Shown: positions 1,256-58,172 of the stretch, in pieces
Position numbering within the stretch: position 1 is the first letter of the stretch
Layout of the letters: every line of letters starts with the position of its first letter
Source: Octopus vulgaris
Lineage: Eukaryota
DNA: 64,000 nt
Reading direction: 5' to 3'
Assembly: GCA_951406725.2 (NCBI GenBank)
Contig: OX597830.1
Location: 23,064,001-23,128,000 of the forward strand
Position numbers and translations under genes: made by a program
Notes under the pieces: generated by a model
What the model was told of the DNA's origin: nothing
What the model saw: the letters and a program-made list of their open reading frames with translations, nothing else
Database searches by the model: none

Positions 1256-1271
1256 TATGTGTGTATTCATG

Positions 1272-1309
<38 letters not shown>

Positions 1310-1397
1310 TGTGTGTGTATCTATCTATCTACCATTCTATCTATCTATCCATCCATCTATCTATCTACCATTCTATCTATCTATCTATATCTACCAT

Positions 1398-15320: not shown

Positions 15321-15998
15321 GTGAGCGTTGAGGAGATGTGACAGGAGAAGGCAAGAGGGTGAGTGGTGGGAAAATCAATCAAAGACTACAAGAAACACCT
15401 GAGAAAGAACACTGTCACTAGCATTGAACATAAAGGACTGGAAATAGGATTGGCTAAATTGGGAAGTGTATGACAGGGAAAACGAATTTGAGGATAAAGT
15501 TATAGGGAGAAGCTATTTTGCGGATGAATCAAATCCATGCTAATTGTGAAATATATATGTATGTATAAGTGAAAGTACATGGCCTAGTGATTAGGATATT
15601 ACACTCACAACCCATGCTAGCATGGAAAACAGATGCTAAATGATGATGATGATGATTGCTAGACCATGGGTTCAATTCCTGGACTGGGTGGTATGTTGTG
15701 TTTTTGAGCAAAACATTTCATGTTGCTCCAATCTGCTCAGCTGTAAAGGGTAAACCTGTGATTGGGTAGCCTTTCAATCAGGGATAATGCTGGCCTGTTT
15801 GCCTAGCTAGTGGTGTAGCACCATTGGAAAGCTAAAACAATGCAAAGTGCATTGTGATCAGCGATGTGTAATGACATTTAATAAGTCCGGTTGATACTGT
15901 GATATGTATGTGTATACACATACATATATGCACACAAATACATATAAGTACGTGTATATGTGTGTTTGTGTGTGTGCATGCGTGTGTGTATTTTTTAA

Positions 15999-16106
15999 TT
16001 GAAACTGAAACTCAGAGTTTCTCTCATGACTCGAATTTCACACCACAGTGATAGTGATATTCTGGCATGAAACTCAAGTCATGACACAAACTCTTGGTTT
16101 CAGTTT
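15999..16106. repeat. Fold-back palindrome, Penelope-like remnant
   Basis: gaaactgaaactcagagtttctctcatgactcgaatttcac pairs with atgaaactcaagtcatgacacaaactcttggtttcagttt; the consensus of the two arms contains GAAAC-TCGA-GTC. Confidence 0.7.
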
Positions 16107-16718
16107 AAATTATAATAAACCCATATCCTGTTCAACATATGTTGAATGCTTGTCTCTCATTCATTTAGGACATTGATCTCTATCCTTCAGTAAGTCTTTT
16201 AACCTCTTATCAACAGGCACAAAACCACCTCATTCAATCCTCCTCCCCCTCCTCCCAGTTGAGATGTCTTTGTCTTGCAAGTTACTTGGTGACCCCAGCA
16301 GTGCTGGAGCCATGAAAAAAAGTCCCAGTACATTCTGTAAAGAGGTTGATGTCAGGAAGAGCATCCAGCCTTAGAAACCAGGCTGAAATAGGCAACAGAA
16401 CTTGACACACTCCTCTGGCTTGTCAGCTCTTATGAAACCATCCAGCCCATGCTAGCATGCAAAATAGACATTGAGTGATTGACTGATTGATATATATATA
16501 TATAGTTTATAGATGAGAGACATATAAAATACACTTGTAGTGCTCAAGAGATTTAAACATGAGCAAGTATAGGAGTAAATGTAAGGATAAGCAAGTTAGG
16601 CAAGTTTATATGGAAAACATATTAAATACATTTAATACAAAAAAATGTCCATATGTTTACATATAAAAGGGTCTGACTTACACAACAGAAATGACATCAG
16701 AAATTAAAGAGGTTGCAT

Positions 16719-16946
16719 AAGAGTTTTACAAGTCCAACAATTGTTTCTGGGGGCTTGGTGGTCCAAAATAATGATTGCAAATTGAATCCATCATTGGATG
16801 ATACCAGCTTCCATCTTCAGGGAAGAATTTTAGATTTGAGGTTGACAGAAAGGAGATTAAAGATGGAATCCATCTTTAATCTCCTTTCTACCAACACCTC
16901 AAATGTAAAAGCCCCCAGAAACAGTTGCTGAACATACAAAACTCTT
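16719..16946. mobile_element. Fold-back palindrome (Penelope-like remnant) containing a hammerhead motif
   Basis: Outer arms aagagtttt...ttgtttctgggggctt / aagcccccagaaacagttg...aaaactctt; inner hairpin agaaaggagattaaagatgga / tccatctttaatctcctttct. Confidence 0.75.
16733..16823 (-). ncRNA. Degenerate minimal type-I hammerhead ribozyme motif
   Basis: Minus strand: tcc-CTGAAGA-tggaagctggt...accaagccccca-GAAAC-AATT-GTT-gga. Stem I is tcc/gga, stem II is partly paired and stem III is the palindrome ACAATTGT. The cleavage triplet GTT may be a CpG-decayed GTC. Confidence 0.6.
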
Positions 16947-17479
16947 CTTCAACCCCTTTATCATTTCTATCCTGTGTAAGTTGGACCTTTTTATATGTAT
17001 ACATATGTACTTTTTTTGTATTCAATGTATTTAATATTTTTTGTATATCAACTTGCCTAACTTGCTTATCCTATATATATATGTGTGTGTTTGTGTGTAT
17101 GGAGGGGTATAATTTAATGTTTTGGGCGTTACACTCATAGTCATAAGGTTGTGAGTTTGATTCCTGGACCAGGCAATGCATTCTGTTCTTGAGCAAGACA
17201 CTTCATTTCATGTTGCTCCAGTTCCCTTTGGGGTCTAAAGCTGAAACCATAGAATAAAGGGACATCATGATCATCACTTTCTGGCCATTTACGGTCACTG
17301 CTAACATGTATGTATACATTTATATGTGTGTTGACAGCAGCAACAGAGCCATTTAGCTCTTATTTCTAGCAGTGCAGGTATTCTAACATCTTCAGTCATA
17401 TTTAACGACAATTATTGTTTTCCTTTTTGATGAAACTCTGCTAACTAGCTGCCTGATTTAATCATATATATATATATAT

Positions 17480-18060: not shown

Positions 18061-18097
<37 letters not shown>

Positions 18098-18099
<2 letters not shown>

Positions 18100-18613
18100 T
18101 CATCACCGTTTAGCGTCTGCTTTCCATGCTAGCATGGGTTGGACGGTTCAACTGGGGTCTGGGAAGCCAGAAGGCTGCACCAGGCCCAGTTTGATCTGGC
18201 AATGTTTCTACGGCTGGATGCCCTTCCTAATACCAACCACTCCATGAGTGTAGTGGGTGCTTTTTACATGCCACCAGCACAGGTGCCAGACGAGTCTGGC
18301 AAACGGCCACAATCGGATGGTGCTTTTTATGTGCCACCAGCAAGGGGCCAGGTGAGGCTGGCAACGGCCACGAACGGATGGTGCTTTTTTATGTGCCACC
18401 GGCACGAGGCCAGTCGGGGCGGTGCTGGCAACGGCCACAAACGGATGGTGTTTTTTATGTGCCACCGGCACGAGGCCTTTCGGGGCAGTGCTGGCAACGG
18501 CCACATTCGGATGGTTCTCTTACGTGTCACCGGCACTGGTAACTCAGCTGCAATTTCCATTGATCGATTCTCACTTGCCTCAACAGGTCTTCACAAGTAG
18601 AGTTTTGTGTCCC

Positions 18614-35785: not shown

Positions 35786-35980
35786 TTAAAAGTGTGCATG
35801 GAGTGTGGCTTTTAAGCTAGTTCATTCATACATGTATACAGTCACAGATTTACATTGTGTATTTATTTACACAAAGATACATATATCCAGACACACACAC
35901 TTACAGAAATATCTTTGTAAAGTACTGTTAATAAGAAAAATAATAATGAATAAAAACAACAAAAATCTTGCAAAACTTAC

Positions 35981-36239
35981 CTTTGTAAGGACAGTATCGT
36001 GGAAGACTCTTAGGGTAAAGCTTTCCTTCCTTGTCAAGGCAAGCGACATTTGATATTTCCTGTTTACATAGAATGGTCTTGGCTCGATTCAGAGCTGACC
36101 AAGTGTCTTTGGTTTTGATTTCACATTTTGGCGTGAAGTTAGCTGGCGGGTCTATCACAGGCTTTGGTTGGGCAACTATTTTACCGTTAGGAGGACCTTT
36201 CTCGTTCTCCAAGACATTGCGTGTAAGTACATTTGGCCT
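35981..36239 (-). CDS. XYLT: Internal coding exon of peptide O-xylosyltransferase (XYLT1/2, Drosophila oxt orthologue), stem/N-terminal Cys-rich segment
   Basis: Translation RPNVLTRNVLENEKGPPNGKIVAQPKPVIDPPANFTPKCEIKTKDTWSALNRAKTILCKQEISNVACLDKEGKLYPKSLPRYCPYK(G) matches the xylosyltransferase motif PKC-I-K-A-SAL-RAK---C-QEI---C----G-L-P---R-CP--G (as recalled for human XYLT1: [51 protein letters not shown]). On the minus strand it has a long polypyrimidine tract with ccaacag| acceptor and an AAG|gtaagt donor; 259 nt, phase 0 to phase 1. Confidence 0.92.
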
Positions 36240-36305
36240 CTGTTGGCAAAAGAGAAAAAGAAAAAAAAAAAAAAATTAAATATCTATGTATAATAGATAT
36301 ATATA

Positions 36306-51929: not shown

Positions 51930-52496
51930 CAGGATTGTCCGGAAAGTTTGTGCCCATTTGTAGTAGCTTACCTTTCGACATATTTTAGAACATGGCTGAG
52001 TCCATAAAATAGGATTTGAGTACACCTCCATTTAGAGCACAGTTTAAGCTATCTTTTCGTGGAAGAAGGCTTATGTTCCTATAACCTGTGTTAATTCTGT
52101 AACCCTTTAAAATGGAAGATAAGAAAGTTCATTTTCTGCACTTGATGCTTTGGGAACCAGACAAAAATTGCTGTAGATCGGCTGGGATGTGTTACCTCAC
52201 CCTCCATATTCACCAGATATTGCTCCTTCAGATTTTCACTTATTCAGGTCTCTGCAGAATAGTCTTAATGGTAAAAAATTTCAATTCCTTGGATGACGTA
52301 AAAAGTTACCTTGATGAATTCTTTGCCACGAAACCACCCCGATTCTGGGAAGAGGGTATTTTCAAGTTAAAGGAAAGATGGAGATGCATTGCGCAACAAA
52401 TTGGTTCATATTTGGTTGATTAAAAATGTAATGGCAAGAATTTATTGACCTTCTTCTTTCCTTTAAAAATCGGCACAAACTTTCTGGACAACCCAA
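51930..52496 (+). mobile_element. Internally deleted mariner transposon (transposase pseudogene)
   Basis: TIRs ttgtccggaaagtttgtgcc / ggcacaaactttctggacaa with TA at the right end. The N-terminus MEDKKVHFLHLMLWE is fused to GWDVLPHPPYSPDIAPSDFHLFRSLQNSL...FWEEGIFKLKERWRCIAQQIGSYLVD* (mariner YSPD(L/I)APSD motif) with frameshifts. Confidence 0.92.
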
Positions 52497-57344: not shown

Positions 57345-58172
57345 AATATTGTGGAAAATGGAGTAAAGCAAGGAGACCTTGATGCACCCACCCTCTTTGC
57401 AATATACTTTGCTGTTGGGCTGTCAAATGCTTTTCAAAACTCCGAGGAGGGTATTTACATAAAATATCGAACAACAGGGAATGTTTTTAATCTGACCAGA
57501 CTGAAATTCAAAACAAAGGTCTTTACTTCACTCATTAGGGAACTTTTGTACGCTAACGATTGTGATCTTGTCAGTTATTCTGAAACAGGCCTGCAATCTC
57601 TTGTATCTGCATGTGATGATTTTGGGCTGAACATCAACTTGAAAAAAAAAAAAACAGTTGTAATGGATCAACCTGCGTGTGGTGTTGTTTGTAACCCCTC
57701 CCGAAAATTTTTGTTAAGGGAAAGTTACTTGAGGTTGTCGATTCGGTTGTCTACCTTGGAAGCTCTGTTCAAAATGATAGAAATCTTGATACAGAAATAA
57801 AGCTGCAAATTCAAAGGGCAGCAAAAGCATTTGGTGATTTGGAATCATGCGTTTGGCGCCAGCGACATATGCCAGGAAATCTCATAAGTTCTGTCCGATT
57901 TTACCTGTCTTTTGGTGGCCTCAAATTTCATCTGCGAACGCATGGAAAACGAACCTCTACCAACTATTCTGCCTACATGTCTGTGCACACCTTTGAATGC
58001 AGTGTATGCTAGAAGGTTTTCAAATCCAACCGAGGCCTCAAAAGACATTTTAAGATCCACAAAGAGCAGAACTTATCTGCAGCTCTTGGTGGTCCAAATC
58101 GGATGTGCAATCTGTGGGTGGGTGTCTTTTCAGAACATTGTCTGGTTTAAAAAGGCACATCAAATGCCATGA
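57345..58172 (+). mobile_element. RTE/BovB-like LINE remnant: RT motifs plus two degenerate C2H2 fingers
   Basis: ENGVKQGDLDAPTLFAIYF...GIYIKYRTTGNVFNLTRLK.KTKV....IRELLYANDC (YADD-like). Downstream FECSVC*KVFKSNRGLKRHFKIH (57992-58060) and CAICG..(fs)FRTLSGLKRHIKCH (58104-58170). Confidence 0.85.

Follow-up and report, generated by a model that had tools for sequence, protein, structure and literature searches.

The insertion and its hammerhead motif

The window analyzed here is a 64-kb stretch of DNA from Octopus vulgaris, and it holds a 568-bp insertion set between TA repeats as well as a reading frame with an exon of a XYLT gene (Table 1). The original prediction had placed a hammerhead ribozyme within a fold-back element at 16719–16946. 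The motif does lie inside an inverted-repeat element, but this span was too small: nested inverted repeats run from 16584 to 17072, centred on 16868, and homology to other copies extends the limits to 16505–17072. The two arms of the insertion meet almost without a spacer at 16868–16869, and DNA contigs from two runs cross the junction (16841–17001) without difference, showing that the arrangement is not an assembly artefact.

Table 1. Coordinates of the insertion, its hammerhead motif and the XYLT frame in the window
Feature	Positions	Strand	Basis or remarks
(TA)n flank, left	16490..16504	.	sequence
Whole insertion, two 5'-truncated pLTR/3'-end copies of a putative Hydra-clade Penelope-like element, head to head	16505..17072	.	
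Long arm	16505..16869	- (element sense)	starts at 5'-end hot spot -138 from cut site, crosses hammerhead
U17 (16736) and helix I 3' strand GGA (16735–16733); predicted cut between 16736 and 16735	16733..16736	-	
G12–A14 (GAA, 16747–16745) and 8-nt palindromic helix III (16744–16737)	16737..16747	-	sequence, alignment
Long irregular helix II, 66 nt, extra nucleotide on each side of base (16813, 16748)	16748..16813	-	folding, covariation
Catalytic box C3–A9, CUGAAGA (CTGAAGA in DNA)	16814..16820	-	sequence, family alignment
Helix I 5' strand UCC (TCC in DNA)	16821..16823	-	sequence, family alignment
Short arm	16869..17072	+ (element sense)	start about -136, 73-nt deletion
Deletion junction (16909–16911, 2-nt microhomology) and leftover hammerhead 3' half in short arm	16909..16929	+	
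(TA)n flank, right	17073..17082	.	sequence
Reading frame with upstream XYLT exon	35928..36272	-	human XYLT1 match, E 4.9e-10

The long arm ends at the family's long 3' end site (about +245 in reference numbering) and the short arm at the short one (about +155 to +160). As predicted, the copy is decayed. In the long arm, 28 of 320 positions depart from the family majority, a divergence of 8.7% against a median of 10.4% for 27 other copies, and in the short arm 33 of 200 do. The deletion in the short arm took CUGAAGA and most of helix II, so that the whole motif is found on the minus strand only. These breakpoints do not recur in any of 92 sampled arms; those of L156 (-95 to -25) come closest. 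Internal deletions of at least 10 nt are often found inside or just before the hammerhead in this family (L112, L129, L149, L156, L173, L176, L192, L193, L198, L114 and the window copy at 16909), seven of them with a start or end at -94 to -104; template jumps past RNA structures are one possible cause. The hairpin was also checked for A-to-G hyperediting, of which it bears no signature, with 3 A>G among the 28 changes of the long arm and 9 T>C among the 33 of the short arm, compared with 165 of 862 in other copies.

On the minus strand, a complete type-I hammerhead core with a palindromic stem III can be read directly from 16823 to 16733, as originally predicted. The palindrome is ACAATTGT, helix III reading ACAAUUGU here and ACAGCUGU in most copies. 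A hammerhead descriptor, composed after the motif had been seen, matched this site and no other when both window strands were scanned. Shuffling the window 200 times by dinucleotides gave one match with the helix II condition and two without it, and 20000 shuffles of the element gave zero and one, respectively. The description of the motif as minimal holds for helices I and III but not for helix II, which is an irregular 66-nt hairpin. The window copy has a U–A pair at the base of helix II, and its palindrome was preserved through two changes, from the family's AGCT to AATT (16741–16740). L023 also has AATT; this likeness is likely due to chance, since the other arm of the window copy has just the C-to-T of the two changes.

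A search of Rfam, proposed as a check, gave no hammerhead match in the window at E ≤ 10. It also gave none for L051, an intact relative, making the blank result for the window uninformative; both misses are likely owed to the long helix II. By folding prediction, the hammerhead fold of the window motif lies 4.3 kcal/mol above the lowest-energy fold, and those of isolated family motifs lie 2.5–12 kcal/mol above it.

Other repeats surround the insertion. A second fold-back of 139 bp (61-nt arms, 79%) lies 400 bp away at 15985–16123, further common interspersed repeats are found at 15608–15721, 16341–16479, 17146–17222 and 18096–18500, and the last includes a 62–66 nt tandem unit (18256–18500). 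By eye, frames on the plus strand resemble a mariner transposase end (52103–52423) and a LINE reverse transcriptase fragment (57345–58012). Also seen by eye, downstream of the hammerhead, were the word GTAAGT and, after it, CTAAC with a pyrimidine tract (window 16976–16983 (+) and 16678–16685; family +45 to +65 and +140 to +185), which together look like a possible pLTR intron.

Parent element and conservation of the motif

When the 2.8-Gb genome was searched with a 301-nt query, 1330 candidates were returned; among the 40 of these that were scored, the best copies other than that in the window were 81–88% identical. Across 29 other copies, the majority sequence includes the core, the palindrome ACAGCUGU and helix I. 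Some near-identical copies have common flanks and represent segmental duplications (L005, L007 and L010 at C17:19.25–19.43 Mb; L229–L231 on C28; L140/L141; L178/L179). Longer copies extend upstream into a frame with a CxLCLxE...CxH tail, and a search with this frame gave 14242 candidates, of which 150 were scored. In L065, an inverted pLTR is followed by a direct pLTR with the hammerhead and then by a broken ORF for a reverse transcriptase (RT) with, at its C-terminus, an endonuclease of GIY-YIG type. Its translation, read directly, has the RWK, DKT, RT, CxCx5C linker, CxxC-E and CxH-type motifs, the last CxH reading CKY where L003 has CKH. In L003, L090 and others, the same repeat is located after the endonuclease; a repeat found both before and after the RT–endonuclease ORF is a pLTR. 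The young sister family represented by L051 has an RT–endonuclease ORF that is open over 806 aa and carries Hydra-clade motifs, with the RWK region outside the frame examined; 720 homologues of this protein were found, one of them from Argonauta.

Profile support for the GIY-YIG domain was weak (P0001, E 0.012, under the cut-off; none for L051), so that the names of the RT and endonuclease domains rest on motifs. Pfam gave no match for four element proteins or two short queries, and the PDB gave a weak match to the GIY-YIG domain of I-TevI (E 0.58). Insertions in (TA)n are represented by the window copy and many others. Judged by its motifs, the parent element would belong to the Hydra clade of Penelope-like elements (PLEs). 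The Penelope-like origin proposed in the original prediction is borne out by the continuity of the hammerhead repeat with an RT and GIY-YIG-type ORF in longer copies; this linkage, which was to be looked for, was found in L065, L003 and L090, among others. The insertion is not a retrozyme. In metazoan non-LTR retrozymes, too, a type-I hammerhead lies in a short repeat that is non-coding and akin to pLTRs, but in the available text of bioRxiv 10.64898/2026.07.22.740005 they are defined by tandem hammerhead units, with no ORF, whereas the window has a single, truncated two-armed stub whose sequence is continuous with an ORF-bearing element elsewhere. The last 40 nt of the element had seemed to resemble the N-terminus of the ORF, a reading that was dropped because the true ORF start in L065 lies further on.

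At 49 of 73 endonuclease loci (a number that omits 9 longer re-fetches), a hammerhead-like match was found on the sense strand within 1.5 kb downstream, compared with 0 on the antisense strand; 16 of these 49 matches were profile seeds. The palindromes vary by family (ACAGCUGU, ACGGCCGU, ACGAUCGU and AUGGCCAU), and in sister families the hammerhead lies at the same place with 8-nt palindromes that are different but compensated. We aligned 14 sequences, taken from 17 seeds plus the window, partly chosen for pairing and mutually related. In these, helix III is paired in 100% of cells, with double changes at three of its four pairs, two helix I pairs are always paired, and the base of helix II consists of two G–C pairs, beyond which the helix is irregular. 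Pairing reached 82%, compared with 27–52% in slid controls, a contrast that is inflated by the pairing-based choice and relatedness of the sequences. Core letters other than N7 are invariant in this selected set, and the additional nucleotides that flank the base of helix II, one per side, are unpaired in 10 of the 14. Helix II measures 56–72 nt in family and sister motifs. Among the 33 matches that were not seeds, helix III pairs at 4/4 positions in 17, at 3/4 in 5 and at one or two in 8, some of the last being misparsed, and 3 were unparsed. The stem covariation that had been proposed as a check is thus present as compensated helix III changes across families, including matches outside the seeds. 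That the motif is a chance match within a DNA-transposon-like palindrome, as the blank Rfam search and the after-the-fact descriptor might suggest, is refuted by this conservation, together with the shuffles and the adjoining RT–endonuclease ORF, and can be given practically no credence.

Hammerheads of other families also appeared in the fetched sequences. L051 holds a second, unrelated hammerhead with a long helix II at 1265–1355 (+), with an inverted copy near 20–110; its helix I has 6 bp, position 17 is A, and its 8-nt palindrome is identical to that of the window copy. This hammerhead lies upstream of the ORF within an inverted pair of 385 bp and probably stems from another PLE family. 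Type-I hammerheads with palindromes of 6 to 10 nt were seen in L065 (1500–1575, +), L061 (40–110, +), L042 (near 2145), L081 and L057. Their appearance by chance in fetched flanks indicates that the genome is rich in such motifs.

The original prediction explained the GUU at the cleavage site as a GTC changed by CpG deamination. A T stands at position 17 in 28 of 29 other copies, and in 66 of 70 in a larger set (2 with C), while a true CpG nearby, at the helix II base, retains its C in 32 of 46 copies. The GUU was therefore inherited and did not arise by decay of the window copy. U17 also occurs in 10 of the 25 listed Hydra-clade hammerhead families, another octopus family included (available portion of PMC8557442). 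Some sister lineages read GUC (GTC-GG) or GUA, and an old C-to-T change in a distant ancestral master may possibly account for the T.

As far as the accessible text of PMC8557442 goes, Hydra-clade elements with C-terminal endonuclease (EN+) have the same RWK, DKT, CxCx5C, CxxC-E and CxH motifs, target TA, form inverted copies truncated at the 5' end and carry a type-I hammerhead near the 3' end; in many of these hammerheads, the base of helix II has an additional nucleotide on either side. The elements differ from the family described here in helix II, which with its loop is about 10–25 nt there compared with 56–72 nt here, and in helix III, which mostly has a loop of 1–2 nt there and is a perfect 8-nt palindrome here. 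The motif of Hydra-1_oBim (Hydra-1_Obim, Octopus bimaculoides) given in that source differs in sequence, and the window family is therefore another. The minimal metazoan PLE hammerheads, in the part of PMC4209133 at hand, are likewise situated in pLTRs, with a palindromic helix III, a short helix I, a nucleotide between 9 and 10.1 and a G10.1–C11.1 pair, and they also occur as dual motifs on opposite strands; most copies are truncated. Here, however, helix II is far longer, the palindrome is longer, and there is a second extra nucleotide before G12.

Copy ends and the formation of two-armed stubs

A 20-nt word downstream of the cut site had 100 exact matches, compared with 0 for a control. Mapping of 94 matches in 90 loci left 92 arms after removal of two duplicates; 67 of these span the cut site, and 51 hold the whole motif region. 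No pile-up of 5' ends at the cut site was found in this sample, with 3 of 70 ending within 5 nt of it compared with 4.0 expected. At -141 to -130 from the cut site, by contrast with an expectation of 2.3, there were 22 of 38 5' ends (21 of 36 without two within-locus repeats). Both window arms begin at this hot spot, the sharp edge of which, at -138, falls on the A of a TCATTC word fitting the Drosophila initiator consensus. Inspection by eye at +28 from the hot spot showed no downstream promoter element. The Penelope element of D. virilis has an internal promoter within its pLTR (PMC2377424, in part). From the copy ends, the -138 hot spot is likely to be the transcription start.

The 3' ends of the family gather near +160 and +240. 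An adjacent inverted arm accompanies 51 of the 92 arms. Of 50 arm pairs, 29 were unclassifiable; among the other 21, 18 have one arm at each 3' site, 3 have both arms at the short site, and none has both at the long site. In many copies, the two arms have unrelated 5' ends. The young sister family, for which 30 of 32 matches were mapped, has 16 arms with 3' ends at +454 to +459 and 11 at +549 or the reference end, with 11 insertions having one arm at each site and none having both at one site. The cut site is spanned by 26 of the 30 arms and coincides with the start of one. The 5' cluster is broader in this family (6 of 11 at -178 to -164, with a second cluster at -92 to -88), and no initiator-like word was evident there. 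In the L205, L232 region, a young arm that starts at the predicted cut site is fused to an inverted piece of the ORF, which is compatible with a rare cleaved template.

A precedent for such ends is found in PAc, the Poseidon element of Anolis carolinensis. In vitro, its protein cuts and extends both DNA strands, and RT starts at two internal sites on uncleaved RNA (PMC11167929, in part). The octopus copies resemble it in their AT-rich targets and lack of reads ending at the cut site, and would resemble it in two internal RT starts, extension of both strands and an uncleaved template. PAc differs in belonging to another clade, and its ORF begins inside the hammerhead, with RT beginning within the ORF, whereas in L065 the first ATG is found some 45 nt beyond the long 3' end site. 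Modelled on this in vitro behaviour and on the copy ends, a scheme for the stubs can be drawn. The element protein would cut a TA repeat on both strands, and uncleaved RNA would be reverse transcribed from two fixed internal sites, one at each DNA end. Both cDNAs would pass the hammerhead and run out at the RNA 5' end, some 138 nt upstream of the cut site, and joining of the two head to head would give the two-armed stub. In the window copy, later decay would have deleted 73 nt from one arm. By analogy with the systems in the available portions of PMC4209133 and PMC6765202, we infer that the parent hammerhead would cleave weakly, either as a dimer through its 8-nt palindrome or with help from protein.

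The main rival to dual priming is that a single cDNA reached the RNA 5' end, folded back on itself and was copied, the arms being two strands of one molecule. This would suit the nearly spacerless junction at 16868–16869 and the 3 derived changes that the arms have in common over 198 columns; three, however, is close to a rough chance estimate of 1–2. The arms also stop at different preferred 3' sites, each beside its own TA flank, the same layout recurs in 18 of 21 pairs and in the 11 young insertions, and in many copies the 5' ends of the arms are unrelated. We consider this snap-back origin unlikely. Alternatively, the short copies might stem from a short master of their own, as a retrozyme or MITE-like family that is non-autonomous, and owe their common 5' end to it. 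The end common to 22 of 38 arms would fit, L187 has head-to-tail junctions at the hot-spot end, and retrozymes have been proposed to come from pLTRs (bioRxiv 10.64898/2026.07.22.740005, in part). Yet copies of both subfamilies start at the hot spot (11 of A, 4 of B and 7 unassigned), subfamily A has longer copies too, the same sequence runs on into the ORF in other copies, the remaining 5' ends are scattered, and the window has no tandem array; a short master thus appears quite improbable. As a whole, we find it very probable that the window insertion is a decayed two-armed stub of a Penelope-like element with Hydra-clade motifs, carrying a complete but likely inactive hammerhead and likely formed by dual priming.

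The window copy and the wider family

Exons for Branch and Xylo_C, on the strand that also carries the XYLT1-like frame, are located at C17:22.97 and 22.96 Mb, about 90–100 kb beyond the window start, and we infer that all three belong to one gene. Since the insertion sits between XYLT exons, it is probably intronic and sense to the pre-mRNA, in agreement with the original prediction. In the predicted fold of the minus-strand RNA, 16754–16732 pair with the mirror arm with probabilities of 0.92–1.0 except at two mismatches, the complement of the hammerhead remnant in the short arm (16909–16929) pairing with 16755–16732. In XYLT pre-mRNA, the mirror arm would be transcribed ahead of the ribozyme, and the prediction has it pairing with the ribozyme's 3' half. 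According to this folding, the window hammerhead is likely inactive, held shut by its own mirror arm.

The intact core in sense orientation, the U–A pair at the helix II base and the palindrome retained through two changes could also be taken as signs that this intronic ribozyme is active or has been co-opted, cleaving XYLT pre-mRNA and altering its processing. Its divergence from the family is ordinary, however, the 3' half of its core is predicted to be paired, the window offers no tandem partner for a dimer, and PLE hammerheads cleave poorly, according to the available part of PMC4209133; such a role is very improbable. The copy shows no sign of selection and is most likely ordinary genomic debris, of little importance by itself.

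Hammerheads in PLE pLTRs, including those of the Hydra clade and of octopus, and inverted truncated copies are already in print. A literature search, which covered few subscription papers and the supplement of PMC8557442 in part, found nothing on this family, on Hydra-clade hammerheads with a long helix II or on the 5' hot spot. A possible, though still doubtful, wider reading is that the octopus Hydra-clade elements carry an undescribed long-helix-II hammerhead missed by standard models, and that thousands of stubs record a cycle in which RNA begun at a fixed initiator, 138 nt ahead of the cut site, would be copied uncleaved from two fixed starts, one for each end of the DNA break; the ribozyme would then not generate the template's 5' end and would act at another step.

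The long helix II may explain why Rfam fails on such motifs, and the young sister family, with its open ORF in L051, provides material for an assay. The copy ends agree, in a second clade, with the in vitro behaviour of the lizard element (PMC11167929, in part), namely uncleaved templates, two starts and extension of both strands. The family is thereby a genomic test of two questions about PLEs: the role of the hammerhead and the origin of inverted insertions.
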